A stretch of 64,000 bases of DNA from Patescibacteria group bacterium UBA2196 (GCA_002328025.1 DCVE01000013.1:42579-106578); one strand, 5' to 3'. Counted from the stretch's first letter, positions 5,577-63,791 are shown. Numbers and translations are program-made. The notes: generated by a model not told the origin, from the sequence alone.

Positions 5577-5605
5577 TTGACAAAAACCTTATTTTTTGTT
5601 AATAT
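5577..5605 (+). promoter_or_regulatory. sigma70-like promoter for rnpB
   Basis: TTGACA-17 nt-TAATAT, placing the TSS about 10 nt upstream of the RNase P RNA 5' end. Confidence 0.45.
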
Positions 5606-5616
5606 AAATATTGTCT

Positions 5617-5990
5617 AAGGGGTGGGTGAGCAATCGCCCTAATATCCGCTAATTGGTGGATTGTTGGGGAGGAAAGTCCGGACGCCACACAAAGGATAGT
5701 TCTGAAACAGAACCGAGCATAAGAAATACAAGAAAAATAAGTTACGATCGTTTTATTTTTCTTGGTCAATTTTAAAACTCCGAGCAAGCGCCACAGAAAA
5801 TAAACCGCCTTGTTAGTTAAAAGACTCACGAGGTAAGGATGAAACCGCGGTGTAAGAGACCACGCGCTTCTATGGTGACATAGATTTGGGTAAGCCTTAT
5901 CCGGCGCAAGTCCCTTTAAAAGGACGCGTTAGATAGATGATTGCATTCCGTTTAGACGGAAACAGAATCCGGCTTATGATCCCACCCTTT
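5617..5990 (+). ncRNA. rnpB: RNase P RNA (bacterial type A)
   Basis: conserved P4 strands GGAGGAAAGTCCGGAC and AACAGAATCCGGCTTA; terminal P1 pairing AAGGGGTGGG/CCCACCCTT; GC-rich in an AT-rich background; no ORF. Confidence 0.85.
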
Positions 5991-6012
5991 GGATATATAA
6001 GAATTTTAATTT

Positions 6013-21728: not shown

Positions 21729-22736
21729 ATGGATATTCTAATAAGTGCACAACAGATTATAAGGCAGGCTAATTTTGTATTACTTCAGAAGGAGTGGCAA
21801 GAAAAGCTTGGCAGAGAATTTGGTCATGTTTTTTTAGCATATGGAACACAAACAGATGTAGAGTATTTTTGTGTTCATGAGGATTGGTATAAATTTAGAG
21901 ACAAAGGACTTTTTGTTTTGGTTGGGGGAAAAATAACTTCTGGCCAAAATGGAAGAGAGGGTCTCTTGTTGGTCACCGGGCTGGAACCAAAGGAACTTTT
22001 TTTTAATACCAGTCTTTTAAAAAAGGTTTTGCATCAGTGTAAAAGGTATGCCGAAAAAATTAATGCTAAATCGATTGGTTTAGCCGGAATGTTACCTAGT
22101 TTTGTTCAAAGAAAAATACAAAAAAGAGAATTAGATTTGCAAAATGATTTTGGGTCTTTGTTTGTCAAGGGCCTAATGGGGAGCACGTGGTTGGTTTGTA
22201 ATTCCGTTTTAGAGTTGGTAGAACCAAGAACAAAAGTAGCCGTTGTCGGGGTTGGATACCTTGGCGAGTTTGTCGCGGATGTGTTAGAAAGAAGAAATTA
22301 TAAAGTAACAAGATGGGACACAAAAAACACTACTAATAATCTAGATGATCTTAGACAGTGTGAACTTATTATAGGGCTTACACCAAATGGAGATGATTTA
22401 TTTGGGTATGCCGAGTTGATGAAGGGCTCTAATGTTAGGAAAGTTTTATTTGACACTCACCCAGTCCCGTCACAACGCACGGTGGATGTTTTAAACCTGG
22501 CTAATATCAAGGTCTTTAAAGCCATAGCTCGTTCTAATGGGGTTGAAACTAGGCCGGCACTTCCAAATTTTGACAAGAAAGACATGCCTGGTTGTATGGT
22601 GGATGGGTATGTGCGTTCGTCAAAAATCGGTGATAATACGGGTGGCGTGAGTTATGACTGTTTTGATCAAGCCGCAAGTCAACTTGGAATTCAAACTCCG
22701 TTACTTGAGCTCACTCCCGAGCTCGAGTTAGTCTAG
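21729..22736 (+). CDS. hypothetical protein with Rossmann NAD(P)-binding motif
   Basis: VAVVGVGYLGEFV...KVTRWD GxGxxG signature; GC-richer codon usage than neighbours. Confidence 0.5.
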   Translation: MDILISAQQIIRQANFVLLQKEWQEKLGREFGHVFLAYGTQTDVEYFCVHEDWYKFRDKGLFVLVGGKITSGQNGREGLLLVTGLEPKELFFNTSLLKKVLHQCKRYAEKINAKSIGLAGMLPSFVQRKIQKRELDLQNDFGSLFVKGLMGSTWLVCNSVLELVEPRTKVAVVGVGYLGEFVADVLERRNYKVTRWDTKNTTNNLDDLRQCELIIGLTPNGDDLFGYAELMKGSNVRKVLFDTHPVPSQRTVDVLNLANIKVFKAIARSNGVETRPALPNFDKKDMPGCMVDGYVRSSKIGDNTGGVSYDCFDQAASQLGIQTPLLELTPELELV

Positions 22737-22758
22737 TGAGTGCATGTAAAAGTTTTTA

Positions 22759-22800
22759 CGCCGTGACCTTACAATTTACAAACAGGTCACGGTTTTTTAT
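22759..22800 (+). terminator. intrinsic terminator
   Basis: CCGTGACC-16 nt loop-GGTCACGG followed by T6. Confidence 0.5.
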
Positions 22801-22828
22801 TTTTTATAAAAATGATATAATATATTTA

Positions 22829-25063
22829 ATGAATTTTATTTTTGATTACAAAAATATAATTTTGGTTGTTATTGCCCTATGCAATTTGATTTTAGGTTTT
22901 TTTGTTTTGTTTAATGGACTAAAAAGAAATAGAAAAATTAATATTTATTATTTTTTACTAAGCATCGTGGTTTCTTTGTGGGCTTTTGGCATGATTATGT
23001 ATCGAGGTTCGGTTGAGGTGGTAGATAAAATTGTGTGGTGCCGGTGGTTATATGTTTTTGCCACATTTATTCCAACCGCATTTATCTTTTTTTGTTATAA
23101 TTTTTCTGGCCGTGAAATAAAATTTCGCTGGTGGTACAAATTAATAATATTGGTGTTAAATTATGGCGTTGTTTGGATCTCTTTGTGGCCAACGGGCGGT
23201 GTAATTATGGATGTCACAAAAAGAGCTTTTTTTGAGGATCAGATTATTTTTGGTCCGTTGTATATGTTGTACAACATTTATGTACCAGCCATGTTCGCGT
23301 GGGGATTTTGGATTTTATATTACAAATATCGTCAGACGGATGGAATTGCCAAGATGCAAATTAAATATGTTTTTTGGGGAACATTTTTATCTTCAGCCTT
23401 GGGCATGAGTACCAATTTAATTTTACCAACCTTTGATTATTTTGAATTGAATTGGTTGGGGCAGGCTTTAACTTTGGTGATGGTGGGATTTATTGCTTAT
23501 GCCATTATTCGCTATCGCCTGATGGATATTAAGATGGTTTTTTCAAAATCCATTATTTATTTTTTCTTGGTTTTGTTTGTGACCGGATTGTTTAGTTTTT
23601 TTACCCTGTGGACTGGGAGCAGTTTAATTCCGAGCTTAAACATAACTCAAAAAGTTTTATTAACGGTGATGATTTCGTTTATGGTGGTGCTAATAATGGA
23701 TCCATTAAAAAAATTATTAGCTAAAATTACTGATAAAATATTTTTTCGAACCAGAATTGACCACATAAAAGTTATTAAAACACTGACGGATATTATTGCT
23801 TCGGAAATTGATAAACGGGTTTTGATAAACAAATTATGTTTTGGTGCCAGGCAAGAATTGCGCGTGACGGCTTTTAAAATATATTTAAAAAATAAAATTA
23901 GTGGCGTGTTTGGACCGGCTGTGGCCTTGGATAAAAAAGAGAATGCGTTTTCGGTTGCTAGCGGCAAAGCCTTGGAAAAATATTTTAATAAAAACAGGCA
24001 GGTAATATTTGTGGAAGAATTTTTATACGAACATAATTTTTTGGGGCATAAAGACGAATTGTTGGAGCGTAAAAAAAATAAAAAAACAAAAGACGATTTG
24101 GTTTTGATGATTGCGCAGATTGATGCCGAATTAATAGTTCCAATTTTTCATGAAGAAGTTTTAACAGCTTTCTTTGTTGTGGGTAAAAAATTATCAGGTG
24201 AGCAGTTTGATAAGCAAGATTTAAATTTGTTAGATTCGGTGGCCAGTCAGTTTTCATCAGCTTTGGAAAAGGCCGAACTGTATAATCAAGCGCAAAAATT
24301 TAGTCAAAAATTGAAACACGAAGTGGAAAAAGCCACCAGTGACTTAAGGCATGCCAATGAACATTTAAAAAAATTGGATGAAGCAAAAACCGAATTTATT
24401 TCCGTGGCATCGCATCAGTTGCGTACTCCACTTTCTGGAATTAAGGGCTATCTGTCTATGCTAAAAGATGGTGACTTTGGAGTTTTGGAACCGAAAAAGA
24501 AAAAAATTGTCAGTGATGTTTTGGTTAATACCGAGCGTATGGTGCGCTTGGTAAACATTTTTCTCAATATTTCTCGCATTGAATCTGGTCGTTTAAAACT
24601 GGAAAAAACCAAATTTGATATTACAAACATGACCAAAGAAACTTTGCGTGAACTAAAAACCGATGCTGAGAGTAAGGGTCTAAAATTAGAATTTGCTGGC
24701 GTTCAGGAAAAGATAATGGTGAATGCCGACTGCGATAAATTACATGACGTGTTGATGAACTTGGTGGATAACAGTATAAAATATACAGAAAAGGGCGGGG
24801 TGACGGTTGAGTTACATAAAAAGAATGGTTTAGTCAGAGTCATGGTTAGCGATACTGGCATTGGAATTACTAAAGATGACATTGATGGTTTGTTTATCAA
24901 ATTTGGACGGGGTAAAAAAATTGCCCAAATTAATACCGCTGGTTCTGGATTGGGATTATTTATTGCTAAAAAAATAGTTGAACTGCACAATGGAAAAATT
25001 TGGGCAGAATCAGACGGCGAGGGAAAGGGTAGCGCGTTTAGTTTTGAAATTCCGGTTGAGTAG
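22829..25063 (+). CDS. sensor histidine kinase with multi-TM N-terminal sensor domain
   Basis: HisKA H-box SHQLRTPL; HATPase_c N/G boxes (DTGIGI, GSGLGL); start placed after the terminator at MNFIF. Confidence 0.8.
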   Translation: MNFIFDYKNIILVVIALCNLILGFFVLFNGLKRNRKINIYYFLLSIVVSLWAFGMIMYRGSVEVVDKIVWCRWLYVFATFIPTAFIFFCYNFSGREIKFRWWYKLIILVLNYGVVWISLWPTGGVIMDVTKRAFFEDQIIFGPLYMLYNIYVPAMFAWGFWILYYKYRQTDGIAKMQIKYVFWGTFLSSALGMSTNLILPTFDYFELNWLGQALTLVMVGFIAYAIIRYRLMDIKMVFSKSIIYFFLVLFVTGLFSFFTLWTGSSLIPSLNITQKVLLTVMISFMVVLIMDPLKKLLAKITDKIFFRTRIDHIKVIKTLTDIIASEIDKRVLINKLCFGARQELRVTAFKIYLKNKISGVFGPAVALDKKENAFSVASGKALEKYFNKNRQVIFVEEFLYEHNFLGHKDELLERKKNKKTKDDLVLMIAQIDAELIVPIFHEEVLTAFFVVGKKLSGEQFDKQDLNLLDSVASQFSSALEKAELYNQAQKFSQKLKHEVEKATSDLRHANEHLKKLDEAKTEFISVASHQLRTPLSGIKGYLSMLKDGDFGVLEPKKKKIVSDVLVNTERMVRLVNIFLNISRIESGRLKLEKTKFDITNMTKETLRELKTDAESKGLKLEFAGVQEKIMVNADCDKLHDVLMNLVDNSIKYTEKGGVTVELHKKNGLVRVMVSDTGIGITKDDIDGLFIKFGRGKKIAQINTAGSGLGLFIAKKIVELHNGKIWAESDGEGKGSAFSFEIPVE

Positions 25064-25191: not shown

Positions 25192-26193
25192 ATGTTTAGA
25201 CAATCATTGCTTAAAAAAATTAAAAAAAGTGGTTTAATCGGTCGTGGCTGCAATAATTTTTTGGTGGCTGAAAAATGGGAAATGGTAAAGCGTGTAAAAG
25301 GCGCGGAAAAGTTCGTGGTGTGTAATATTTCCGAATCAGAGCCGGGTATATTTAAAGATAAATATATTTTGGAAAAATGGCCACAATTGGTGTTGGATGG
25401 TATTAATTTAGCCATGCATGAAATTAAAGCTAAAAAAGGTTTTGTCTATCTAAATCCACTGTATTATGGTGAATTTCAAGCCAGTCTGGAACAAATAATT
25501 TTAAAAAATAATTATAGTATCGAATTATTTGAGAAGCCCTTGCACGACTATGTGGGTGGAGAAGAAACAGCGGTTTTAAACTCTATGCAAGGTTTGAGAG
25601 TTGAGCCGCGCTTAAAACCACCCTATCCAACCAAAGTTGGTTTTTATGGTGCGCCGACACTAATTCACAACTGTGAAACTTTTTATGCCGTGTCTCTAAC
25701 AAATTCTGGTGTTTATAAAAATACTCGTTTTTATTGTTTGTCTGGTGTTGATAGAGCAAATGATGTAAAAGAATTAGCAACTGATTTAACGGTTCGTGCG
25801 GTTTTACAAGAATTTGATCATACACCAAGCGTTGATTTTTTTTATCAAGTTGGCGGAGGAGCGGCTGGTTTTTGTTATAATTACAAGCAATTGAATCGTA
25901 AATTTGAAGGCTCTCCAGCCATTATTATTTATAAAAACAATGATTCTGAACAGGCAATTGTGATGAAATGGTTGGATTTTTTTCGTAAAGAATCTTGTGG
26001 TCAGTGTGTGCCATGTCGGGAGGGAACTTTTCGTTTGCGTAATTTGATGTATACATATTATCAAGGTGGAAAACTTGATAAAAAAGCTTTTGATGATTTA
26101 ATTTTGTCATTACAAAAAACTAGCTTATGTGCTTTGGGAAGAACTGCTACAAATGCCGTGGTTTCGTATTTTAAAAACGTAAAAGGAATATGA
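25192..26193 (+). CDS. NuoF-like flavoprotein subunit (hydrogenase diaphorase-type, short)
   Basis: GGEETAVLNSMQG (NuoF GEETALL motif); CGQCVPCREG N3 4Fe-4S motif; FMN motif degenerate (GRGCNNF); translationally coupled to hydA. Confidence 0.75.
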   Translation: MFRQSLLKKIKKSGLIGRGCNNFLVAEKWEMVKRVKGAEKFVVCNISESEPGIFKDKYILEKWPQLVLDGINLAMHEIKAKKGFVYLNPLYYGEFQASLEQIILKNNYSIELFEKPLHDYVGGEETAVLNSMQGLRVEPRLKPPYPTKVGFYGAPTLIHNCETFYAVSLTNSGVYKNTRFYCLSGVDRANDVKELATDLTVRAVLQEFDHTPSVDFFYQVGGGAAGFCYNYKQLNRKFEGSPAIIIYKNNDSEQAIVMKWLDFFRKESCGQCVPCREGTFRLRNLMYTYYQGGKLDKKAFDDLILSLQKTSLCALGRTATNAVVSYFKNVKGI

Positions 26194-28139
26194 AAAAAAT
26201 AAAATTTTATATTAATAATAAAGAATATACTGCTTTGGAAAATGATTCTGTTTTGGACGTGGCTTTACGAGAAGGACTAAATGTTCCGCATTTGTGTAAA
26301 CATCCGGATTTGGCCATTAAAGGTAATTGTCGTTTGTGTTTGGTACAAGTGGAAAATAAAGGTGTGGTGACAGCCTGTTCGACTGTGGTGGAAAAAGGGA
26401 TGCAAATTTTTTTAGAAACCGAAGAAGTTAAAAGCTTACGCAAGACAAATTTGGAGCTTATTTTTTCTGAACATCAGGAAAAGTGTGCCACTTGTTTGTA
26501 CCAAGATAATTGTCAAATATTAAAATATGCAGCTGAATTTGGTATAAAAATTTCGCGTTTTGAAGACAGAAAAAAACATTATTCAACCTGGCAGTTTGGT
26601 GATTCCATACGGTTTGATAGTTCTAAATGTATTGATTGTCGAAATTGTGTGGAAGTTTGCGATAAACAAGCCTGTAGTTTTTATGAAATTGCAGAAAGAG
26701 GAGTTGAAACAATCATTAAACCCAAAGGAGAAGTTGGTGGAATTACCTCCCCCCACCCCCTCCTTCTAAAGGAGGGGAGCTTAGATCTGTTAAAAAATGA
26801 TGTAGATAAATTTGATTGTACTTATTGTGGGCAATGTGTGACACATTGTCCGGTGGGAGCAATTAGCGGGGTATCGCATTGGGAGGAAGTTGAAAAATTA
26901 TTAAAAGATCGAGCTGGAAAAATTTTGGTTGTTGAAATTGCTCCGTCTATTCGTGTCTCTATTGGTGAAGAGTTTAATGAACCATACGGTAAGATTGTGA
27001 CTGGGCAATTAGCGGCTTCTATGAAAGCTTTGGGGTTTGATTATGCTTTTGATGTCAATTTGGGTGCCGATTTTACCACTTATGAGGAAGCACAAGAAGT
27101 GGTGGAAATGGTTTTGAATAATAAATCGCGTCCATTATTTACTTCGTGTTGTCCGGCGTGGGTAAAATTTGTTGAATTTTATTATCCGGAATTTATTGCC
27201 CATTTGACTAGTGCTAATTCACCGCACATGTGTTCTGGACCAATTATTAAAACCTATTTTGCCGATTATTTAAAAAAAGATCCACGCGATATTGTGGTGG
27301 TTTCAATTATGCCGTGTACCTCAAAAAAACATGAAATTAATTTAGAGACGCACACCATTGATTTGGGTTGGTGTTTGGAAAGATTGGATTTACCTAACAT
27401 TAAAAATATTTGTCCGGATAGAAAACAACTACAGGGCGTAAAAATAAAAGCCGTGGATTATGTTTTAACCACGCGTGAATACGCCCATCTTTTGCATAAA
27501 CACAAGATTGATTTATCAAAACTTAAAGCAGAAAAATTAGACAAACCTTTGGGCGTCTATTCTGGTGCCGGAGCAATTTATGGCGCGACCGGTGGAGTTA
27601 TGGAATCAGCTCTTAGAAGCGCGGATTATTTTTTCCGAGTCTGGGATGAAACCGATTCATTAAAATCAGTGGTCAAAGGAGAAAATTATAAATTGAAAAA
27701 GAAAAGATTTTCTAAATTATTACAAAGTCGCATTGAGTTTAAAGAAGTGCGTGGTCAAAATGGAATTAAAGAAGCCAGGGTAAAGGTGGGGGGGCGTAAG
27801 TTAAATGTTGCGGTCGTTAATGGTTTGGGTAATGCTAAAAAAATTTTGGATGACCTTAAAGCCGGTAAGGTAAAATATGATTATGTGGAGGTTATGGCCT
27901 GCCCGGGTGGTTGTATTGGTGGTGGTGGTCAGCCCATTCCGACTAATTCAAAAATTAGAGCCCAACGCGCCAACGCAGTTTATGAAATTGATAAAAACTT
28001 AGCCATTCGTACAGCTCACGAAAATCCAAGTCTTTTGGAGGTGTATAATAAATATTTTAAGGGTGATAAAGAAATAATTGAAAAAGTTTTACACAGTAAA
28101 TTTAAGGTTAAACAAAAAACAGGATATACGATAGTATAA
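26190..28139 (+). CDS. hydA: [FeFe] hydrogenase catalytic subunit with N-terminal 2Fe-2S and 4Fe-4S ferredoxin domains
   Basis: H-cluster motifs TSCCPAW (L1), MPCTSKKHE (L2), EVMACPGGCIGGGGQP (L3); CIDCRNCVEVC and CTYCGQCVTHCP ferredoxin motifs. Confidence 0.85.
   Translation: MKKIKFYINNKEYTALENDSVLDVALREGLNVPHLCKHPDLAIKGNCRLCLVQVENKGVVTACSTVVEKGMQIFLETEEVKSLRKTNLELIFSEHQEKCATCLYQDNCQILKYAAEFGIKISRFEDRKKHYSTWQFGDSIRFDSSKCIDCRNCVEVCDKQACSFYEIAERGVETIIKPKGEVGGITSPHPLLLKEGSLDLLKNDVDKFDCTYCGQCVTHCPVGAISGVSHWEEVEKLLKDRAGKILVVEIAPSIRVSIGEEFNEPYGKIVTGQLAASMKALGFDYAFDVNLGADFTTYEEAQEVVEMVLNNKSRPLFTSCCPAWVKFVEFYYPEFIAHLTSANSPHMCSGPIIKTYFADYLKKDPRDIVVVSIMPCTSKKHEINLETHTIDLGWCLERLDLPNIKNICPDRKQLQGVKIKAVDYVLTTREYAHLLHKHKIDLSKLKAEKLDKPLGVYSGAGAIYGATGGVMESALRSADYFFRVWDETDSLKSVVKGENYKLKKKRFSKLLQSRIEFKEVRGQNGIKEARVKVGGRKLNVAVVNGLGNAKKILDDLKAGKVKYDYVEVMACPGGCIGGGGQPIPTNSKIRAQRANAVYEIDKNLAIRTAHENPSLLEVYNKYFKGDKEIIEKVLHSKFKVKQKTGYTIV
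26757..26777 (+). repeat. perfect 9-bp palindrome CCCCTCCTT-CTA-AAGGAGGGG inside hydA (in-frame)
   Basis: seen directly; same element as at 41611-41631 in alaS. Confidence 0.6.
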
Positions 28140-28146
28140 ATTTTAA

Positions 28147-29436
28147 ATGTTTAAGATTATGGCGTACCTAGAATCAATTAAATTTGTTAAAAACAAATCC
28201 GCCGACTGGCGGAATAAAACTGTTTTAGTTCGTTGTGATTTTGATGTGCCTTTAGATGCCGACAAAATTAAAGACGACAGCCGATTAAAAGCGAGTCTTT
28301 TGACAATTAAATTTTTATTAAAAAATAAATGCCAGATAATTTTAATGGGACATTTGGGTCGGCCAAATGGAAAGGTTGTTTTGGAATTAGGTTTAAAGCC
28401 AGTCCAGCAACGTTTGGAAGAATTGTTAAAAACAAAAATTGAATTAGTTAAGTTTGGTGAAATTAGTCCTTCGGTAAAAAATAAACGAGATGAAAAAAAC
28501 AAGATTATAATGTTAGAAAATCTACGTTTTTGGTTGGGTGAAGAAAAGAATGATAAAAATTTTGCACGACAATTGGCGAGTTTGGCTGATATATATGTAA
28601 ATGAAGCGTTTGCTGTGTCGCATCGTGCGTGTGCATCGGTGGATGCCATAAAAAATTATTTACCCAGTTATGCCGGATTTAATTTAACCAAAGAAATTGA
28701 AAAATTGTCACAAGTTTTAAATCGACCACCCAGACCTTTGGTGGCTATTATTGGTGGAGCAAAAATTGAAACCAAACTACCGGTTTTGGATAAATTTTTG
28801 GCTAAAGCTGATTATTTATTGGTGGGTGGGGCGATTGCCAATAATTTTTTTAAAATTTTGAATTATGAAGTCGGCCAGTCTTTGATTGATCGAGAGTATT
28901 TACCAGCAGCTAAAAAATTGTGGCAAAAATCAAAGAGTGGTGCGCTTAATTTTGTGGTAAAGGATAAACAGTTGGTTGTTGATAACGAGCTTATTGGCAG
29001 TAAATTAGATTTAGCAACAATAAAAAATTTACGTCACAAAATAGTTTTACCAATTGACGTGGCAGTTAAAAATTTAAAAACACAAGAAAAAGAAATAAAA
29101 ACACCAAATCAAGTTAATTTAAATGATAAAATTTTGGATATTGGACCGCAAACACTGGAGTTTTATGGACGTATAATAAAAGGCGCTCGTTGTGTTGTTT
29201 GGAATGGACCTATGGGGCAGTTTGAAGCACCAGAATTTGCTTTAGGAACTTTTGGTGTGGCCGAGTTAATTATTAAGTCGCGTGCGCGCGCAGTTATGGG
29301 TGGTGGAGAGACCGAGGAAGCCTTAAAAGGTGTTTTACATAATAAAGAATTACCCAGAAGAATTTTCGTTTCCACTGGTGGCGGGGCGATGTTAGAATTT
29401 TTAGGTGGTAAGAAATTACCGGGACTAGAAAAATAA
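28147..29436 (+). CDS. pgk: phosphoglycerate kinase
   Basis: VLVRCDFDVPLD N-term; GGGA...GG C-terminal motifs. Confidence 0.9.
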   Translation: MFKIMAYLESIKFVKNKSADWRNKTVLVRCDFDVPLDADKIKDDSRLKASLLTIKFLLKNKCQIILMGHLGRPNGKVVLELGLKPVQQRLEELLKTKIELVKFGEISPSVKNKRDEKNKIIMLENLRFWLGEEKNDKNFARQLASLADIYVNEAFAVSHRACASVDAIKNYLPSYAGFNLTKEIEKLSQVLNRPPRPLVAIIGGAKIETKLPVLDKFLAKADYLLVGGAIANNFFKILNYEVGQSLIDREYLPAAKKLWQKSKSGALNFVVKDKQLVVDNELIGSKLDLATIKNLRHKIVLPIDVAVKNLKTQEKEIKTPNQVNLNDKILDIGPQTLEFYGRIIKGARCVVWNGPMGQFEAPEFALGTFGVAELIIKSRARAVMGGGETEEALKGVLHNKELPRRIFVSTGGGAMLEFLGGKKLPGLEK

Positions 29437-29473: not shown

Positions 29474-30757
29474 ATGAAAAAAAATACCATTGCTAAACTT
29501 TATGCGCGCGAGATTCTTGATTCACGTGGCAACCCAACCTTAGAAACAGAAGTAACTTTGGATTGTGGTTTAAAGGCCAAAGCCAGCGTACCAGCTGGCG
29601 CGTCAATTGGCGAACACGAAGCTGTTGAACTGCGCGATATGGATAAAAAAAGATATGGCGGTCAGGGTGTTTTAAAAGCCGTTGAAAATGTGAATAAAAA
29701 AATAGCCAAAAAAGTTTTTGGTTTGGAAATTTTAAAACAACAAGAAATTGATCGCGCCATGCTTAAACTGGATGGTACCAGTGGTAAAGCATATTTGGGT
29801 GCCAATGCTATTTTGTCAGTTTCTTTGGCATGTGCCAGGGCCGGGGCTTTGATGGAAAATTTAGAACTTTATGCTTATCTAAGAAAAATTTATCAACTAC
29901 CAACAACCAGTCGTCAGTTGCCGGTGCCAATGTTTAATATTTTTAATGGTGGTAAACATGCGGATACAAATTTGAATTTGCAGGAATTTATGATTGTGCC
30001 GTTTGGAATAAAAGGTTTGGGTGAGCAGGTGAGAGCTGGCGCCGAAATTTTTCATGCTTTGGGTGAGGTGTTACGCAGTAACTATTTTGATACTGATGTG
30101 GGCAATGAGGGCGGCTATGCGCCGAACCTAGATTCAACCGTGCAAGCGTTTGACATGATTATGGAAGCGATTGACAAAGCGGGTTATCACGCCGGCAATC
30201 AGGTGGGTTTGGCTTTGGATGTGGGTGCTTCAGAACTTTATGATCCGCAAAAAAGATTATATGTTTTTGACCTTGATGATCATTATTTTATTACTGATCA
30301 ATTAATTTCTTTGTACCGTGATTGGGCACATAAGTATCCAATTTTTTCCATTGAAGACGGATTGGCAGAAAACGATTGGGAGGGGTGGGAAGATTTAACC
30401 AATGAATTTAAACGTTTTAAACCCCTAGCTTCCAGACAAAAAATGTTTTTGGTGGGTGATGATCTTTTTACGACTAACTCGGAAAGATTAAAAGCTGGGA
30501 TAAAGCGCGGTGTGGGTAACGCGGTTATTTTAAAACCCAATCAAATTGGAACTTTGTCAGAGAGTGTGGAATTTGCTAAAATAGCTCAAGCTGCCGGTTA
30601 TACCATTGTGACTTCGCATCGCTCTGGCGAGACAACAGATGATTTTGTGGCTGATTTAGCGGTGGCTTTAAATTCTGATTTTGTAAAATTTGGTTCACTG
30701 GCACGTGGAGAAAGGGTGGTAAAATATAATCGTTTAATGGAGATAGAAAATAAATAG
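29474..30757 (+). CDS. eno: enolase
   Basis: AREILDSRGNPT N-term; SHRSGETTD motif. Confidence 0.9.
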   Translation: MKKNTIAKLYAREILDSRGNPTLETEVTLDCGLKAKASVPAGASIGEHEAVELRDMDKKRYGGQGVLKAVENVNKKIAKKVFGLEILKQQEIDRAMLKLDGTSGKAYLGANAILSVSLACARAGALMENLELYAYLRKIYQLPTTSRQLPVPMFNIFNGGKHADTNLNLQEFMIVPFGIKGLGEQVRAGAEIFHALGEVLRSNYFDTDVGNEGGYAPNLDSTVQAFDMIMEAIDKAGYHAGNQVGLALDVGASELYDPQKRLYVFDLDDHYFITDQLISLYRDWAHKYPIFSIEDGLAENDWEGWEDLTNEFKRFKPLASRQKMFLVGDDLFTTNSERLKAGIKRGVGNAVILKPNQIGTLSESVEFAKIAQAAGYTIVTSHRSGETTDDFVADLAVALNSDFVKFGSLARGERVVKYNRLMEIENK

Positions 30758-30764
30758 AGGATAT

Positions 30765-32384
30765 ATGTCGCATAAAAATTTAAAACAATTCAAACAAAGT
30801 CCGCTAGTGATGGTAATTTTAGATGGCTGGGGAATTAATAAGGCCTATAACGGGAATGCCATTACTGGGGCTAGTGTACCAGTATTTGATACACTCTGGA
30901 AAAATTATCCACACACGGAGTTGTGTGCCTCTGGCAGGTGTGTGGGCTTGCCAGCCATGCAGGATGGTAATTCAGAAGCTGGTCATTTTAATTTGGGTGC
31001 GGGTCGAATTGTTGATCAAGATACTCTGATGGTTTCTAAGGCTATTAGCAGTGGACTTTTTTTTAAAAATCCAGCCCTTAAAGCCAGTCTTAAACATTTA
31101 AAAAGAACTGGTGGTAGTTTGCATTTAATGGGATTGCTATCAGGTTGGCAATCGGCGCACGCGGATCCAGATCATCTTTTGGCATTGCTGACATTTTATC
31201 GCCAAGAAGGTGTAAAGGAAATTTTTTTACATCTTTTTACTGACGGTCGTGATTCTTATCGTTTTGGTGCGTTAGATTTTTTAAAAAAGATAAGAAAAGA
31301 AATGCGTGGTGGTGAAAAAATTGCTACAATTTGTGGTCGTTATTATGCCATGGATAGAAAAAAACAATGGGATCGTATAGAAAAGACATATCAGGCCATA
31401 GTTGCAGGTAAAGCTGTATATTATTCCAAAACAGCTGAAGAAGCCATTAAGCAGGCTTATGATCGTGGTGAGAGTGATGAATTTATTGTGCCAACCGTGA
31501 TGGTTACTGGTGGTAAATGTGATAGTAAGGGTGTGTGTACGGGTGGTAAACCAATTACGGAAATTAAAAACGGTGATGCTGTAGTTTTTTTTAACCTAAG
31601 ATCTGATCGCGCCAGAGAGCTAACTAAGACTTTTGTACAAGCGGATTTTAATAAGATGAATGTGGGGTCTTTTGTACGTACTCGGATTTTGAAAGATTTA
31701 TTGTTTGTTTCCATGACTGATTTTGGACCTGATTTAGACAGTATCTTAACTGCTTTTCCGTCGCAAAATTTAAAAAATACATTACCCATGGTTTTGGCTG
31801 ATATGCGACAACTGTATATTGCGGAAAATGAAAAATACGCCCATGTAACATATTTTTTTAATGGTGGTTATGCTGATCCACTGAATGGTGAAGATAGAAT
31901 AATGATTCCGTCGTTAGATGTATCATCATATGATTTACAACCAGAAATGTCAGCTTTGAAGATCACTGAAAAAGTTGTGAGTGATTTGAAAAATAATAAA
32001 TATGATTTTATTTTAGTTAATTTTGCCAATCCAGATATGGTGGGGCACACTGGTAATTTGGCTGCCGGTATTAAGGCTTGTGAAACAGTGGATACTTGTG
32101 TGGGTAAGATTTTAAAAATTTTGACAGAAAAAGAAGGTATTTTATTAGTGACGGCAGATCATGGTAATGTGGAAGAAATGATTGATGAAAAAACAGGCAA
32201 GATAGACACCCAGCATTCTTCTTTCCCTGTACCGTTTATTATTGCTGACAAAAGAATAAAAAATATAAAAAATTATAAGTTAAAAAATAAAGGTATTTTG
32301 GCCAATGTGGCGCCGACAATTTTAGATTTATTGGGTAAAACGAAACCCAGAGAGATGACAGAAACCTCACTTATAGTTCATTAA
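30765..32384 (+). CDS. gpmI: 2,3-bisphosphoglycerate-independent phosphoglycerate mutase (copy 1)
   Basis: MVILDGWG...GNSEAGH (catalytic Ser); ADHGN C-terminal metal site. Confidence 0.85.
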   Translation: MSHKNLKQFKQSPLVMVILDGWGINKAYNGNAITGASVPVFDTLWKNYPHTELCASGRCVGLPAMQDGNSEAGHFNLGAGRIVDQDTLMVSKAISSGLFFKNPALKASLKHLKRTGGSLHLMGLLSGWQSAHADPDHLLALLTFYRQEGVKEIFLHLFTDGRDSYRFGALDFLKKIRKEMRGGEKIATICGRYYAMDRKKQWDRIEKTYQAIVAGKAVYYSKTAEEAIKQAYDRGESDEFIVPTVMVTGGKCDSKGVCTGGKPITEIKNGDAVVFFNLRSDRARELTKTFVQADFNKMNVGSFVRTRILKDLLFVSMTDFGPDLDSILTAFPSQNLKNTLPMVLADMRQLYIAENEKYAHVTYFFNGGYADPLNGEDRIMIPSLDVSSYDLQPEMSALKITEKVVSDLKNNKYDFILVNFANPDMVGHTGNLAAGIKACETVDTCVGKILKILTEKEGILLVTADHGNVEEMIDEKTGKIDTQHSSFPVPFIIADKRIKNIKNYKLKNKGILANVAPTILDLLGKTKPREMTETSLIVH

Positions 32385-32395
32385 TTTTAATTTTT

Positions 32396-33994
32396 ATGCA
32401 TGTAGATAATAATTTAAAAGATACAAGACCCAAACCGGTGATGCTTGTAATTTTGGATGGTTGGGGTGTGGCGCCAGCTTTAATTAGTAATGCTATTACG
32501 CAGGCTAAAACACCCAATTTTAATAAATACGTGCAACAGTATTTTAGTACGACCTTGCAAGCTTCAGGTGAAGCGGTGGGTTTGCCGTTTGGTGAAATGG
32601 GTAATTCCGAGGTCGGTCATTTAAATATTGGTGCTGGCAAAATTGTATTTCAAGAATTACCACGCATAAATAAAGCTATTTTGGAAGGCAAATTTTTTGA
32701 AAATTCAATTTTAATTAAAGCTTGTTTAGCCGCTAAAAAAAATAAAAGTACTTTGCATATAGTTGGTTTAATCTCAACTGGTGGGGTGCATGCTTCAGTA
32801 GATCATCTTTATGCGTTGTTGGAGCTTGCTAAAAAACAACAGCTAAAAAATGTTTTTGTACATGCTATTTTGGATGGACGTGATATGGGTTATAATTCTG
32901 GTTTAGATTTATTGCGTCAGGTGAAAAAAAAAATGCAGGAGATTGGCGTAGGTAAAATTGCCACAGTGTGCGGTCGTTTTTGGGCCATGGATCGTGATAA
33001 CCATTGGGAACGTATAAGTGAAGCCTACCAGGCCATGGTTTATGGAATGGCAGAATTTAAGGGCGAGGATATCTTTGAAATTATACAAACAGCATATGAA
33101 GGTGGGGTTTATGATGAAGAATTAAAACCAATAGTGTGTTTGGACACAATTGCTCAACCTTTGGCCACAATTAAAGATAAAGATGCGGTGATATTTTTTA
33201 ATTTTCGTGCTGATCGTGCTAGAGAATTGACGCGTGCTTTTGTGTTGCCGGGTTTTGAAAAATTTAGGCGTGTGGAGTATCTAGCCAATTTATATTTTGT
33301 GACCATGACACAATATGAAAAACAATTACCTGTGGATGTGGCTTTTCCACCCGAGCATATTACTATGCCGCTGGCAAAAGTTTTAAGTGGACAGGGTTTG
33401 AAACAGTTACACATAGCCGAGACTGAAAAATACGCGCACGTAACATGTTTTTTTAACGGCGGCTTAGAAGAGACGTTGCCGGGTGAATATAGAATTTTAG
33501 TTCCATCACCGCGAGTGGAAAGTTATGCTGAAAAACCAGAAATGTCCGCTGGCGAAATAAAAAACAATTTAATTAAGGAAATCGCTAACAATAAGTTTGA
33601 TTTTATAGTTGTTAATTTTGCCAATCCGGATATGGTCAGTCATACAGGTGATCAAAAAGCTACTGTCAAAGCTTTGGAAAAAGTTGATAAATGTGTGGGT
33701 GAAATTGTGGAGGCGGTTTTAGCTTATGGCGGCGTGACTTTAATAACCGCAGACCATGGTAACGCCGAGTGTTTGGTGAATGATAAAACTGGTGAAATTA
33801 ATAAAGAACACTCTACCGCCCCAGTGCCTTTTTTAATTGTTGGGCAGGCCTTCAAAAGTCAATATATTGGTGAAGAAACAGTGGATTTGACATTACTAAC
33901 ACCTTCAGGGGTGTTGGCCGATATCGCGCCGACCATTTTAAAAATTATGCAAATTGAACAACCTAAAGAAATGACCGGTAGAAGTTTAATTTAG
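32396..33994 (+). CDS. gpmI: 2,3-bisphosphoglycerate-independent phosphoglycerate mutase (copy 2, tandem paralog)
   Basis: LVILDGWG...GNSEVGH; ADHGN; clearly homologous to copy 1 but divergent. Confidence 0.85.
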   Translation: MHVDNNLKDTRPKPVMLVILDGWGVAPALISNAITQAKTPNFNKYVQQYFSTTLQASGEAVGLPFGEMGNSEVGHLNIGAGKIVFQELPRINKAILEGKFFENSILIKACLAAKKNKSTLHIVGLISTGGVHASVDHLYALLELAKKQQLKNVFVHAILDGRDMGYNSGLDLLRQVKKKMQEIGVGKIATVCGRFWAMDRDNHWERISEAYQAMVYGMAEFKGEDIFEIIQTAYEGGVYDEELKPIVCLDTIAQPLATIKDKDAVIFFNFRADRARELTRAFVLPGFEKFRRVEYLANLYFVTMTQYEKQLPVDVAFPPEHITMPLAKVLSGQGLKQLHIAETEKYAHVTCFFNGGLEETLPGEYRILVPSPRVESYAEKPEMSAGEIKNNLIKEIANNKFDFIVVNFANPDMVSHTGDQKATVKALEKVDKCVGEIVEAVLAYGGVTLITADHGNAECLVNDKTGEINKEHSTAPVPFLIVGQAFKSQYIGEETVDLTLLTPSGVLADIAPTILKIMQIEQPKEMTGRSLI

Positions 33995-47857: not shown

Positions 47858-48271
47858 ATGTCAGAAAATAAATTAACTACAAAAGAATATTTTCAAGGTT
47901 TGGGTCGCCGCAAAGCAGCCATTGCTCAAGTTAGACTATATGCAGAAGGCACAGGCGAAACAACCATTAACGGTAAACAGGCTGATGTGTTTTTTCCTTA
48001 TTTTGAATTTAAAGATCAGGCTTTTTCTCCACTCAAAATTTTAGGTTTGGAAAAAAAGTTTGATATGTCAGTTAAAGTTGCGGGTGGCGGTTATAGAGGT
48101 CAGGCTGAAGCAATTAAATTGGGGGTGGCCAGAGCTTTGGTGGTTTTTAATGAAGAGAACAAAAAAGTTTTACGTGCCAGCGGATTTTTAAGTCGTGACC
48201 CCAGAATTAAAGAACGTAAGAAGCCGGGCTTGAAGCGCGCACGTCGTGCGCCACAGTGGGCAAAACGTTAA
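47858..48271 (+). CDS. rpsI: 30S ribosomal protein S9
   Basis: GLGRRKAAIAQVRL...C-terminal KRARRAPQWAKR. Confidence 0.9.
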   Translation: MSENKLTTKEYFQGLGRRKAAIAQVRLYAEGTGETTINGKQADVFFPYFEFKDQAFSPLKILGLEKKFDMSVKVAGGGYRGQAEAIKLGVARALVVFNEENKKVLRASGFLSRDPRIKERKKPGLKRARRAPQWAKR

Positions 48272-48296
48272 TTTATTGGTTTATATACTTTTTAAA

Positions 48297-48322
48297 AGCC
48301 CTGTTGTGTACAGGGTTTTTAT
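48297..48322 (+). terminator. intrinsic terminator ending the ribosomal operon
   Basis: CCCTGT-TGTGT-ACAGGG followed by T5. Confidence 0.5.
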
Positions 48323-48324
48323 AT

Positions 48325-48353
48325 TTGACATTTTTATTAAACTGTGTTATAAT
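48325..48353 (+). promoter_or_regulatory. consensus sigma70 promoter (extended -10) driving the GC-rich island
   Basis: TTGACA-17-TGtTATAAT. Confidence 0.5.
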
Positions 48354-48402
48354 ATATTTAGCTAATATAAACAAAAATTCCTTTAAAATGAGTTGAGAGG
48401 AG

Positions 48403-49585
48403 GTGATTTCTTTGTCTCGTCAGATGAATTGCATTCAGTGGGTTCTGGTAGTTTTGGTGGTTGGATTGTTTATCTTTAACCACCGGGAAGTTATCGTAAA
48501 GCAGTACCGTGATAACACGCCCGTATTGACGAGCGAAGAAATCACGGAATTGGAAAACAATGTGGAAAAAGTATATGCCACGGCCAAAGAAAAAATAGAT
48601 GCCGAGACATATACACCGCTGGATTGGCAGCGGGATATCTATTTTTTAAAGTTAAAAATTATTCGTACCATGGGGGGGCACGTACAGCTCTGGGAGCTAT
48701 CGTTTCTATGAGCTGGCTGAAGAAGCCTATCAGTATACCATTGATAGGTATTACACCCCCAAGAGTGATGATCCAAAAAGAACATTGTTTTTTCAGCAAG
48801 AGGTTAACAATGCTCAGGCTCAAGTCATGGCGGAAAACAATGAAAGGGTTGACTGGGCTAAAATATTTAGCCAGCTTCATCTGTTCATGCTGGCTTTTCT
48901 GCCATATTCTTTGCTGATCGTCCTTATTCGCCGTTCAGCAAGATATAAATTATGGCAGATATATTCGGCCGGAGATATCGTCTGGGTCATAATTGCGATT
49001 GGCTTGAGCGTTTTTGGGGCCATCGCTTACCGCCCCGACAATTTCATCCAGAAGCGCGTTGATTCGCAACTGCAAATCTGGAAGGAAAGAATCGGTGCAA
49101 GAGGTTGGCGTTTGGCTTTGGCGTATTTGGTGGCGATTGTTATTTCTTTGGCCACTTTATTTCGCCCGGCCAAATCGCAGGCCCAGACAGTAGTCGAGAC
49201 CAAGATTGTTAGTATGGTCCCAGCTGCCACCATCGCCAATCAACAGGAAGAATCCGACGAGCAGCAAGTTTTTTTCCCAGAAAAGATCGTCGGATTTTTG
49301 CGGAGATTTTTTGAAGAAATTATGAAGGGGATTGAGACTGTTGTTTACAGTTTATTTTCTCTTCTTATTATCCATTTTTTTTCTCCTCCGCTAGAGTTTG
49401 TCTGGGGGATGTGGGCCAGGCCACCAGATGATATTCGTCTTTGGACGATCCGAGCCCTTGGTTCTCGCGCTCCTGCGAATTTTGTTCAATTTAATTCACG
49501 AATTAATTGGACAAAAAACAAAGGAGTTTATCATGAGAACCAAAATTGTAGTTTTTATAATCTTGGCGCTTTTTGCTGTAGCTAG
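48403..49585 (+). pseudogene. polytopic membrane protein gene split by a frameshift at a G7 tract (48670-48676); GC-rich island
   Basis: frame 1 ORF 48403-48711 and frame 2 ORF (open from 48656 to 49585) join across GGGGGGG; both halves carry TM helices; the intermediate ORF 48624-48917 is an out-of-frame artefact. Confidence 0.45.
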
Positions 49586-50132
49586 CGCCAAAGACCCGTC
49601 CAACACTGTGAAGTTTAATGTCGCCACAAGCGGCGGTAAAAACAGTGTTTCGGTAATTGTTTTCCATCTACGGGAAAATACTGGTTTTTTAAGTATTATT
49701 CCTCAGAACGGGATTCAAGCCGGGGTTGGACCAAATTTTTGGATAAACACGCGAGGAGTTAAGGGCTGTCTTTTTACCCCCTTGGCTCTTTGCTCTGTGC
49801 AGGACGATCAAGAAGGAATCGGGGTAGGCGAGGTAAGACTTTGGAACATCTTTTTGGCCTCAAGCGGGTCAGTAAAGGTAAGTTCATTGTCTTATTATTC
49901 CTGGCCTTTGATTCAATCCAAAACCAGGAGTTTTTATACAAAAGACCAGGTTACTTTTAGTAATTTTGGTCTGCGGATTGAGAGCGCTTGGCTTAAAGAT
50001 TGGTCCAACTTGGTCGGACCTGTATATCAATTTAACATCCATCCCAAGTTGAACATGCTTTTCTTCTTAAACCTGAATAAGGAAGTTAAAGAAAAGCGTT
50101 CACTGAAGATGGAGATGAGTGTTAGTTTCTAA
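49533..50132 (+). CDS. secreted beta-rich protein with signal peptide and C-terminal aromatic beta-signal-like motif
   Basis: RBS AAAGGAG 7 nt upstream; signal peptide MRTKIVVFIILALFAVASA; C-terminal ...LKMEMSVSF (alternating hydrophobics, terminal Phe); ~180 aa. Confidence 0.5.
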   Translation: MRTKIVVFIILALFAVASAKDPSNTVKFNVATSGGKNSVSVIVFHLRENTGFLSIIPQNGIQAGVGPNFWINTRGVKGCLFTPLALCSVQDDQEGIGVGEVRLWNIFLASSGSVKVSSLSYYSWPLIQSKTRSFYTKDQVTFSNFGLRIESAWLKDWSNLVGPVYQFNIHPKLNMLFFLNLNKEVKEKRSLKMEMSVSF

Positions 50133-50138
50133 TCAATT

Positions 50139-50170
50139 GCGGGTCGCCGAAAGGACGACCCGTTTTTTAT
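50139..50170 (+). terminator. intrinsic terminator closing the GC-rich island
   Basis: CGGGTCG-CCGAAAGGA-CGACCCG followed by T6. Confidence 0.6.
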
Positions 50171-50212
50171 TTTTGTAAAATTGGTATTTTTTTGCTATAA
50201 TCCATATAAAAT

Positions 50213-54224: not shown

Positions 54225-54325
54225 ATTTGCTTTATATTGTTTTTTCTTTTAAAATTAGAGTGTATTTTGGGTTATTTGTTGGTTGGCCAGCGATATATAT
54301 TTAATAGTTAATTATTCATCTTTTT

Positions 54326-54397
54326 GCCCCCATCGTCTAATGGTTAGGACACATGGTTCTCAGCCATGTAATTGGGGTTCGATTCCCCATAGGGGTA
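54326..54397 (+). tRNA. tRNA-Glu (anticodon CUC)
   Basis: cloverleaf by eye: D-stem GTCT/GGAC; anticodon stem CATGG/CCATG with loop TTCTCAG; T-arm TGGGG-TTCGATT-CCCCA; acceptor has one C-A mismatch and a G-U pair; CCA not encoded. Confidence 0.65.
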
Positions 54398-54452
54398 AGA
54401 AGATGAATAGTTAATTGGGTGGTGTGAATTTTATTATCCGTGAATATTATTT

Positions 54453-61768: not shown

Positions 61769-61905
61769 ACTTATAATTGGTAATTATCGTATTGGCATCA
61801 TCCAAAGTTACGATAGCAATTTGGGCGGAGGCTTTTTAAAAAAGCCGTAACCAGATATGCGCTGTTATCTGGTGTTTTATTTTTAAATTTCCCCCCTTCC
61901 TTATT

Positions 61906-62569
61906 TTATTTTATCAACAGCATCGTATTGAATCTGTAATGGTTTATTTTATCCTCTAACACTCCGGCTCTTTGGTCGACTAGTTTCAAAGGTTTCAATA
62001 CGGATTTAAGTTCAAACATGGAGTATGCTTTTGAATAATGCCCGTTTTGAATCTTATATTTCTTGCCCTTAAAGAGACCTGGTAGCGATTCATCAAATTC
62101 AGAAAAAATGGTATACCCCATGGCTTTTAATAGCACCCTTTACATTTTCCAAATAAGTCTTTTTATATTGACTTCTGATGTGATCCAAAACGCTCCAATC
62201 AATAACGATATCGAAAGCCCCTAGGTCTTTTAAAATATTTTTTACCGTGAGATCGGCAATTTTCAAATGCACTTTTTTGTCACCCCTGAATCTTTTTCGA
62301 CAAAGTTTTATGGCCTCTTTGGAAAAATCAACCCCCCAAACTTCAAATCCGAGTTTGCGAAAATATTCCATATGTCTTCCGTCGCCGCATCCGACATCCA
62401 AAATCCTCTTGGCAGAAGTATTTTTTGCTAGCTTATTTTTCTTGACAATATCAACCACGGATCTGCTCGGCGCGTATTCCCAGCTAAATTTTCGCTCGCG
62501 CCGTTTCTCATTGTTCGAAAAAGCTTTTCTGTAAAATGCCAGCTCATTTATTAAATGTTCCTTTTTCAT
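61906..62569 (-). pseudogene. class I SAM-dependent methyltransferase, frameshifted at a C4/G4 run (~62119-62122)
   Basis: ILDVGCGDGRHMEYF SAM motif in ORF 62099-62569; MTase C-terminus (..YTIFSEFDESLPGLF..) continues in ORF 61906-62136 in another frame. Confidence 0.55.
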
Positions 62570-62772
62570 TTTTTGTAAAAAATATTTTAATAAATAGAAA
62601 AAAAGGGGGGGATTTAAAAATATAATTTTACTTAATGGCGGAGACTATGGGAAGTTTGGTGGCGGTATAATTTGCGTCCAAGCACTCACCGCCAACAAAT
62701 TTGGGTGAATGACTGAGCGAAGCGAAGGAGTGAACTTCATGGTTTCTGTTAGCTGATGTTGGGCTGTTTTTT

Positions 62773-63387: not shown

Positions 63388-63737
63388 AGTGATTTGGGTT
63401 AATTAGTAAATAAATTATATGTTAAGTGTTTGGATAAAAACAGCCCAATTTCCGCACAACGTTTGCTTGTATGCGATGTTTTGCACCGATTCAAGCGGTA
63501 ATTACTTTCAGTTTAGCAGATTTGTTTTTAGATTTGAAGACTTTGTATTATCGCCATTCAGAGGTGCAAAATATGGGTGGAGTAAAAATGACATTCCATA
63601 AAATTACAAAGAGTCATTTTTACGGAACCGCATACAAGCTGTTAAACGATGTAATTAAAAATCAATTCCTTATTATTCTTTTGCCAAGACACTTTTTTGG
63701 TTTTTCAAATGTAATGAATTTTATTTTTTTCGTTTTT

Positions 63738-63780
63738 GGCTTTCGACAAGAGGGGATTAAGGGGTGAATTGTCGAAAGCC
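63738..63780. repeat. perfect 12-bp inverted repeat GGCTTTCGACAA...TTGTCGAAAGCC with 19-nt G-rich loop
   Basis: seen directly; lies between a partial minus-strand gene and the next minus gene; no adjacent U-run in either orientation. Confidence 0.4.
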
Positions 63781-63791
63781 AAAAACACCTT

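Follow-up and report, generated by a model that had tools for sequence, protein, structure and literature searches.

A two-gene [FeFe] hydrogenase module with a short NuoF-like subunit, a variant flavin loop and no nearby NuoE partner in a Patescibacteria genome

The 64,000-nt stretch of Patescibacteria group bacterium UBA2196 analysed here (GCA_002328025.1, DCVE01000013.1:42579-106578; hereafter the window) carries two overlapping genes that encode a short NuoF-like protein and HydA, the catalytic subunit of an [FeFe] hydrogenase. We suggest that the pair specifies a heterodimeric (or alpha2-beta2), non-bifurcating group A [FeFe] hydrogenase linked to nicotinamide adenine dinucleotide (NAD(H)). 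It would consist of a NuoF/HydB core and an M3-type HydA, and the non-canonical glycine-rich loop of the NuoF-like protein, GRGCNNF, would be a selected remodelling; we put the probability of this reading at about 0.55. The layout of the genes, the completeness of their motifs, the lack of a neighbouring NuoE gene, the clade structure, and the conservation, selection and fold of the protein were computed directly, and flavin occupancy, the NADH donor, the direction of catalysis and the subunit complex are inferred by analogy with known enzymes. An earlier note on this DNA had described a translationally coupled pair with a 333-aa upstream product, a HydA with all three H-cluster motifs, and a NuoF-like protein that keeps the GEET motif and the N3 cluster motif and has GRGCNNF in place of the canonical loop. 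Translation of the open reading frames (ORFs) agrees with this description on every point. Coupling of the two genes is suggested by their ATGA overlap, and a Shine-Dalgarno-like AAGGA lies 4 nt 5' of the HydA ATG. The composition of the window resembles that of the Candidate Phyla Radiation (CPR): its GC content is 31-42%, almost every gene is on one strand and the gene content is of the small-genome type.

The NuoF-like protein matches the Pfam families Complex1_51K (3e-26; 92.6 bits versus a cut-off of 31.2) and NADH_4Fe-4S (9e-18; 64.3 versus 23.5). It comprises a Rossmann-like domain for flavin mononucleotide (FMN) and NADH, a shortened beta-grasp (SLBB-like) domain and a four-helix N3 [4Fe-4S] domain; SLBB is unmatched in Pfam, yet the beta-grasp strands are visible in the AlphaFold2 (AF2) model. 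NuoE-like, N-terminal 2Fe-2S and C-terminal ferredoxin domains are all lacking. The top match of known structure, Thermotoga maritima HydB (TmHydB), aligns over residues 183-546 of 626 only (1.3e-46), so by this alignment the protein is the NuoF/HydB core alone. It begins at position 35 of the nuoF profile (TIGR01959), which corresponds to about residue 48 of the 410-aa NuoF of a trimeric locus (L045), with no in-frame extension upstream, and it ends 4 residues past the N3 domain. Its shortness is thus made up of about 45 lost N-terminal residues, trimmed loops and the absence of the extra cluster domains of HydB, with the core fold intact. The AF2 model, built from a 55-sequence family alignment, has a mean predicted local distance difference test score of 93.4 (85-88 in the loop region). 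In Foldseek it scores a template-modelling (TM) value of 0.88-0.91 against Aquifex NuoF and TmHydB, with NfnB and FdsB also near 0.9 (query-normalised), and the predicted fold is that of an intact NuoF. The score against the respiratory NuoF equivalog TIGR01959 is 185.5, far under the cut-off of 558.65, so on sequence grounds the protein is not a respiratory NuoF. Its cysteines are at positions 20, 44, 161, 182, 228, 269, 272, 275 and 313; the last four are the N3 ligands, which all align with N3 ligands of Aquifex NuoF (the first three with residues named as such in PMC6560083), and the GEET motif is GGEETAV at residues 122-128. The zinc hinge of HydB has no bearing here, as it sits in the C-terminal region of HydB (HydB-CT), past the end of the NuoF-like protein.

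HydA matches Fe_hyd_lg_C (3.6e-84), Fer2_4, NADH-G_4Fe-4S_3, two copies of Fer4 and Fe_hyd_SSU in Pfam. It has the make-up of a group A M3 enzyme: TSCCPxW, MPCxxKxxE and P3 motifs, all accessory-cluster ligands and a small-subunit-like C-terminus. Three lineage-specific insertions lie at about residues 168-205, 388-421 and 479-513. The best NCBIfam model is that of the NADH-dependent A6 type (NF040763; 595 bits versus 464 for the clostridial ferredoxin type), and the group B1 model scores 167 against a cut-off of 450. Among proteins of known structure HydA matches T. maritima HydA (1e-95) and Clostridium pasteurianum CpI (about 1e-108). A sensory (group C) hydrogenase coupled to the histidine kinase upstream was considered and rejected: HydA has every group A motif and no PAS or sensor domain, and the kinase was seen as a neighbour in no locus other than the window's own copies (L002, L003) and one 89%-identical relative (L088).

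The earlier note's claim that the window lacks a NuoE/HndA-type subunit was borne out. A hidden Markov model (HMM) built from seven HydC/NuoE proteins of non-CPR loci found no match in the six-frame translation of the whole window (best E = 0.56). As a positive control, the same HMM recovered a NuoE gene or fused domain beside nearly all fetched non-CPR NuoF loci. It found no match in the 13 CPR loci obtained from a genome scan (flanks of up to 10 kb per side), and PF01257 was absent within +/-10 kb of four further loci (L085-L088) of the clade with Cys in the loop described below, which brings the related CPR loci to 17. A profile search of genome contigs with the family alignment returned, among the matches listed, mostly non-CPR NuoF loci and one locus of the Cys type (L005). 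Further copies of the pair were found in genomes that resemble Falkow-, Moran-, Gottesman- and Kuenenbacteria. Two relatives, P0135 (885 aa) and P0140 (918 aa), are natural single-chain fusions of a short NuoF with HydA, and such sequences support a direct NuoF-HydA partnership without NuoE. In P0138 (449 aa), NuoF is fused only to the cluster-less N-terminal part of a NuoE domain, a remnant that suggests progressive loss of NuoE. Locus L045, from an unclassified bacterium, encodes a trimeric set of NuoE, 410-aa NuoF and HydA beside accessory genes that are also found near CPR hydrogenases; because of these shared genes it may resemble the ancestral form. Another family member, P0150 (702 aa), consists of a short NuoF and an Oxidored_q6 ([NiFe] small-subunit-like) domain, with a linker rich in Pro and Thr between them. 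The short-NuoF-HydA module also occurs on a contig labelled Candidatus Woesearchaeota archaeon (L011), next to genes that by eye resemble those for glyceraldehyde-3-phosphate dehydrogenase, phosphoglycerate kinase and a class-I (archaeal-type) aldolase. The contig is binned as a DPANN archaeon, so the module was either transferred between CPR and DPANN or binned wrongly. Most published Woesearchaeota hydrogenases are described as trimers with NuoE.

The loop GRGCNNF does not match the family pattern GxGG(A/G)(G/A)[FY] of the FMN loop: relative to Aquifex NuoF, Gly68 is replaced by Cys20, and Ala69 and Gly70 by Asn. A homologue search with the NuoF-like protein gave 358 relatives, and among the best 120 of these nearly all have full length (about 320-390 aa), with Patescibacteria or Kuenenbacteria as the named source of many. 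Of 129 aligned CPR members, 68 have Cys as the fourth residue of the loop and 61 have Gly. In a neighbour-joining tree rooted on Aquifex NuoF (no support values), the Cys forms make up a single clade (68 of 69 tips) nested inside GRGG-type CPR sequences, and the loop passes along the tree from GRGGAGF through GRGGA(C/S/E)F, GRGC(C/G)NF and GRGCGTF to GRGCN(N/S)F.

The roles of the pocket residues are known from Aquifex (PMC11677225, PMC9299107; Aquifex numbering for these contacts). Phe71 stacks on the adenine, Lys76 and Glu185 contact the adenosine ribose, and the nicotinamide is surrounded by the Glu95-Ser96-Glu97 triad, Asp103 and Tyr180. Gly67 and Gly68 bridge to the FMN ribityl (via water) and to the nicotinamide ribose, and the Gly67 carbonyl is hydrogen-bonded to the nicotinamide-derived group of the inhibitor NADH-OH. 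We found that N92, E95, E97, K102, D103, G183, P203, P204, N220, E222, T223, K76 and W77 are kept in 68/68 members of the Cys clade, Y180, F71 and E185 in 67/68 and E184 in 66/68; K202 is Lys in 60 and Arg in 8. Outside loop positions 68-70, conservation of the tabulated NADH/FMN contacts is thus 97% or higher, matching or exceeding that in the GRGG sister group, with K202 an exception in form only. The later part of the Cys clade also shows co-substitutions in the pocket motifs (Gly to Ser49, Gly to Asp119 beside Tyr120, and Val to Cys161 in the NNVET motif), and Ser49 restores the ESE triad of complex I. Against L088 the loop is identical, and the ratio of nonsynonymous to synonymous substitution rates (dN/dS) of the NuoF-like gene is 0.12 (pgk 0.105, nifS 0.096, hydA 0.057). 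Replacement of Ala-Gly by Asn-Asn or Gly-Thr is what general structural knowledge would lead one to expect if a tight loop geometry were preserved.

Fixation in a monophyletic clade, purifying selection and an otherwise conserved NADH/FMN pocket identify the GRGC(N/G)(N/T/S)F loop, as far as sequences can tell, as a conserved derived state under selection rather than decay. The earlier note had called the FMN motif degenerate and had proposed scoring the FMN contacts by alignment. The alignment upholds a non-canonical loop and, through the conservation of the remaining contacts, speaks against degeneracy. Taken together with the loop geometry and the co-substitutions, these data indicate a pocket that is probably remodelled and functional rather than dead, and they lean towards retention of the flavin. 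Since Gly67, the neighbour of the substituted position, contacts a nicotinamide-side group, and Gly67 and Gly68 bridge to the FMN ribityl, the Cys clade, with its co-evolved Ser49, Asp119 and Cys161, might have brought a reactive thiol to where flavin and nicotinamide meet. This could give chemistry new to the NuoF family, such as a thiol-gated or flavin-adduct switch in place of the missing N1a/NuoE gate, or Cys20 might mark a changed or lost cofactor with another donor; we consider this suggestion speculative and on balance improbable. A new metal site formed by Cys20, Cys161, Cys182 and Cys228 is unsupported: Cys20 is older than Cys161 (the GRGCCNF group has Leu161), Cys228 also occurs in Aquifex and T. 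maritima, and positions 182 and 228 both belong to the beta-grasp domain.

If the pair works as its homologues in HydABC and complex I do, NADH would stack on the flavin in the Rossmann-like pocket and give it a hydride. The flavin would then pass electrons one at a time to the N3-type [4Fe-4S] cluster (C269/272/275/313), which in Aquifex NuoF lies about 7 Å from FMN, and N3 would hand them to the N-terminal [2Fe-2S] cluster of HydA, the presumed entry point. From there they would run through the His-ligated and the two ferredoxin-type [4Fe-4S] clusters to the H-cluster, yielding H2. The NuoE/N1a cluster is off the main electron path in complex I, so its loss need not break electron transfer. 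With the NuoE/N1a branch and the HydB-CT clusters absent, the enzyme would have no ferredoxin site and hence no means of bifurcation. According to PMC9499530 and PMC9304861, every characterised bifurcating enzyme has the HydB C-terminal domain with two [4Fe-4S] clusters, and non-bifurcating enzymes lack it. Published non-bifurcating markers are K/S/A at TmHydB position 234 and Tyr at the Nqo1-Y180 position (Losey 2020, PMC7311640), and the NuoF-like protein has Lys55 at the position of TmHydB M234 and Tyr120 at that of TmHydB F312/Aquifex Y180. For the Phe/Tyr marker we used the Nqo1-Y180 equivalent (TmHydB F312), because position '367' of Losey 2020 disagrees with TmHydB numbering in our alignment. 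Position 232 is Ile, neither of the published states, and the SLBB motif is GGAAG versus GGPSG in bifurcating enzymes. From the missing HydB-CT clusters and the Lys55/Tyr120 states we conclude that the enzyme should be non-bifurcating. The minimal, possibly non-bifurcating hydrogenase suggested in the earlier note fits these data, since HydB-CT, the N-terminal 2Fe-2S domain and a NuoE/HydC partner are all absent. NADH-driven H2 formation would be feasible only at low H2 pressure, a requirement that fits a partner-dependent fermenter. Syntrophus aciditrophicus HydAB, whose reaction is reversible, evolves H2 from NADH with no ferredoxin and attains an H2 pressure of 2.2-40 Pa (PMC7311640).

The genes for lower glycolysis follow directly downstream of hydA (Table 1). 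L085-L088 all retain the order nuoF-hydA-pgk, with eno next in L085-L087; the L088 contig ends within pgk. In 9/13 CPR genome-scan loci gap is found no more than a few kb from the module, mostly just upstream. No + strand terminator-like site was seen from hydA to 34200, a result that is uninformative because promoter and terminator scan counts equal those of shuffled sequence. The nuoF-hydA pair is probably co-transcribed with pgk-eno-gpmI. This operon-like link, and that to gap in relatives, suggests a role in re-oxidising glycolytic NADH and strengthens the fermentative CPR-type lifestyle proposed in the earlier note.

Several observations weigh against this reading. FMN is held by the glycine-rich loop in Nqo1, HydB and StnB, and the fourth position is Gly in 67/67 non-CPR homologues from the fetched loci, with GG kept at positions 3-4; exchanging Gly for Cys here could therefore seriously alter flavin affinity or geometry. 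On a rival reading the flavin is lost, which would leave the GRGC-type protein as an Fe-S (N3) adaptor or a structural subunit without flavin, with HydA fed by ferredoxin (e.g. from pyruvate:ferredoxin oxidoreductase), like monomeric CpI, with which it shares the M3 cluster set. Three consecutive positions are indeed changed in the loop, which binds FMN in every solved homologue, and one distant family member (P0149, 327 aa) has a fully scrambled loop (LRSWNVNDYP) and altered pocket motifs, which makes it a candidate flavin-less derivative. Many CPR bacteria are, moreover, cofactor auxotrophs. However, with neither nucleotide nor flavin bound the NADH/FMN contacts would be expected to drift, yet in the Cys clade they are as well conserved as in the GRGG sisters or better. 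The low dN/dS, the fit of the substitutions to unusual backbone angles and the clustering of Ser49, Asp119 and Cys161 in pocket motifs, which looks like retuning, also speak against loss, and we regard it as unlikely. A further difficulty is the putative stability of a NuoF that lacks NuoE: a NuoE-type partner or fused domain accompanies each biochemically characterised NuoF-type module that we found in the literature, S. aciditrophicus HydB included. A second rival is an ordinary trimeric or bifurcating HydABC, with NuoE-like and other subunits encoded elsewhere in the genome. Our reading is confined to 64 kb of the genome, a HydDB-style scheme would assign a HydA beside a NuoF-like gene to group A3, and the closest structural relatives are subunits of bifurcating HydABC. 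We nevertheless give this explanation hardly any credence, as the protein has neither HydB-CT nor the N-terminal cluster domain, both of which every known bifurcating enzyme requires, the truncated N-terminus has no upstream extension, NuoE is missing from all 17 CPR loci and adjacent in nearly all non-CPR ones, and the NuoF-HydA fusions and the P0138 remnant exist.

The remaining objections concern HydA. Its scores fall below the cut-offs of the group A model (TIGR02512, 401.4 versus 405.95) and of the A6 model (595 versus 765), the match being split by the three insertions. No hydE, hydF or hydG was found in the window by ORF inspection or within +/-10 kb of the 17 related loci, and an active H-cluster is thus assumed. 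The sole radical-SAM neighbour, beside L087, is of the generic SPASM type, which rules it out as HydE/G. If the genome lacked HydE/F/G, or if the organism lived at high H2, the module could be catalytically silent or could mainly take up H2 to form NADH; the reaction of S. aciditrophicus HydAB is reversible. The strong purifying selection on hydA, the completeness of every H-cluster and proton-relay Cys motif, the presence of a TM1266-like regulator next to hydA in three related CPR loci and a glycolytic context that favours NADH disposal all argue otherwise, and we find a silent or uptake module very doubtful. Overall, we favour the non-bifurcating, NAD(H)-linked hydrogenase with a remodelled loop.

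Table 1. Features of the hydrogenase gene pair and the adjoining glycolytic genes (window coordinates).
Feature	Position	Strand	Basis
Short NuoF/HydB-core gene (333 aa)	25192..26193	+	Pfam, HydB match, AF2 fold, dN/dS
Variant glycine-rich loop GRGCNNF, residues 17-23 (canonical GRGGAGF)	25240..25260	+	Translation, family alignment
CGQCVPC, three N3-type [4Fe-4S] ligands C269, C272, C275	25996..26016	+	Aligned with Aquifex C347/C350/C353
Cys313, fourth N3 ligand (LCALG)	26128..26130	+	Aligned with Aquifex C393
ATGA overlap (HydA start/NuoF-like stop)	26190..26193	+	ORF calls, translation
hydA, M3-type group A [FeFe]-hydrogenase catalytic subunit (649 aa)	26190..28139	+	Pfam, NCBIfam, ligands
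N-terminal [2Fe-2S] ligands C36, C47, C50, C63 (NuoG-N1b-like)	26295..26378	+	Ligand motif
His-ligated [4Fe-4S] HxxxCxxCxxxxxC (H95, C99, C102, C108)	26472..26513	+	Pfam, ligand motif
Two ferredoxin-type CxxCxxCxxxC [4Fe-4S] motifs (C147-C157, C210-C220), ~38-aa insertion between	26628..26849	+	Pfam, ligand motif
H-cluster P1 TSCCPAW, residue 318	27141..27161	+	Motif
H-cluster P2 MPCTSKKHE, residue 374	27309..27335	+	Motif
H-cluster P3 EVMACPGGCIGGGGQP, residue 567	27888..27935	+	Motif (family pattern ExMACxxGCxxGGGQP)
pgk, 7 nt past hydA stop	28147-29436	+	Translation, Pfam PGK
eno	29474-30757	+	Translation, Pfam Enolase
gpmI, two tandem diverged copies (cofactor-independent phosphoglycerate mutase)	30765-32384, 32396-33994	+	Translation

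Two accessory genes adjoin hydA in relatives of the module. A TM1266-like 'iron-only hydrogenase system regulator' (PF21699), not present in the window, is encoded at L006:3740-4006, L009:4561-4827, L085:13845-14114 and L045:8988-9266. A conserved membrane protein of about 175 aa is encoded at L005:13419-13943, L006:4118-4651, L007:8764-9297, L008:4350-4847, L009:4864-5403, L014:13503-14078 and L045:8463-8975, and is absent from the window by tblastn; given a weak, sub-threshold match to the S-component of energy-coupling factor transporters (E = 2e-4), it could be a vitamin or flavin uptake component. Directly upstream of the hydrogenase genes lies a 7TM-HisKA-GAF histidine kinase (22736-25063, +), with no response regulator seen adjoining. 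Between it and nifS, a 335-aa ORF (21729-22736, +) without a Pfam family shares 52% identity with its L088 orthologue, versus 85-96% for its neighbours, and is fast-evolving.

Elsewhere in the window we noted a class A RNase P RNA (169.6 bits; 5618-5992, +), which overlaps a mechanically called and probably spurious ORF (5599-5829, -), and a tRNA-Glu(CTC) at 54325-54398 (+). GC skew is about +0.2 over 62 kb, where nearly all genes are on the + strand, and falls to zero in the last 2 kb (~61900-64000), whose genes are on the - strand. The change may mark the boundary of a replication origin or terminus. A local GC peak at 48000-50200 (0.42 versus ~0.35) holds two weakly convincing ORFs (48403-48711 and 48785-49585) and has no Rfam or tRNA match.

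If active, the pair would be the smallest known NADH-type diaphorase-hydrogenase, a NuoF core without NuoE/N1a or a bifurcation domain. It would then offer a natural minimal system for the contribution of NuoE and N1a to NuoF-type enzymes, complex I included, and for the parts needed in bifurcation as opposed to simple NADH:H2 coupling. For CPR bacteria, which are without respiratory chains, an active pair would provide a direct, genetically linked route from glycolytic NADH to H2, a point of relevance to how far they depend on partners that consume H2. The conserved exchange of Gly for Cys in the loop is, in addition, a natural experiment on flavin binding in the NuoF family. Neighbourhood-based subtyping of group A in metagenomic surveys would probably label the module 'A3 bifurcating', which its domain content contradicts.

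In the literature searched on CPR/Patescibacteria [FeFe] hydrogenases with NuoF or HydF/HydG, neither a NuoF-HydA module lacking NuoE nor the GRGC loop turned out to be described. Compared with bifurcating HydABC/Bfu enzymes (HydDB group A3), the module has the NuoF-type FMN/NADH core with an N3-like cluster beside HydA and lacks the NuoE-like HydC/BfuC (PF01257/IPR002023), the HydB-CT clusters B3/B4 and the N-terminal [2Fe-2S]. T. maritima HydABC (7P5H, bifurcating, Bfu family) likewise shares the core path from FMN through the B-cluster and the HydA clusters to the H-cluster; missing here are the parts to which bifurcation is ascribed, namely HydC, the HydB N-terminal 2Fe-2S, HydB-CT with its two [4Fe-4S] clusters and Zn hinge, and the C-terminal domain of HydA. 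NuoEF of complex I (Aquifex aeolicus, 6HL2) is the best structural match (TM 0.88-0.90), and its NADH contacts and N3 ligands correspond one for one, but it has NuoE/N1a, about 45 more N-terminal residues and Gly68/Ala69/Gly70 in place of Cys/Asn/Asn. CpI, a monomeric ferredoxin-dependent M3 enzyme, has the same domain and cluster set as the window's HydA; CpI has no diaphorase partner, whereas this HydA appears translationally coupled to a NuoF-like protein, and relatives combine the two in a single chain. Syntrophomonas wolfei Hyd1ABC (PMC5626996), a trimeric non-bifurcating NADH-dependent enzyme, also combines HydA with a NuoF-like subunit without C-terminal clusters, and the uncharacterised locus L045 shares the TM1266-like protein and the ~175-aa membrane protein with CPR loci. 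Both, however, differ from the window in a separate NuoE-like gamma subunit, a full-length NuoF of about 410 aa and a canonical GRGG(A/G)GF loop. The closest functional analogue is S. aciditrophicus HydAB (PMC7311640), which likewise has two genes, an M3-type HydA, a NuoF-like beta subunit without C-terminal bifurcation clusters, Lys at the TmHydB-234 position and Tyr at the Nqo1-Y180 position, and for which ferredoxin-free NADH/H2 coupling is predicted, as it is here. Its HydB, however, is a 66 kDa NuoE-like (HydC)-NuoF fusion that keeps an N1a-type 2Fe-2S and was purified with FMN, whereas the window's protein has 333 aa, no NuoE module and GRGCNNF as its flavin loop.

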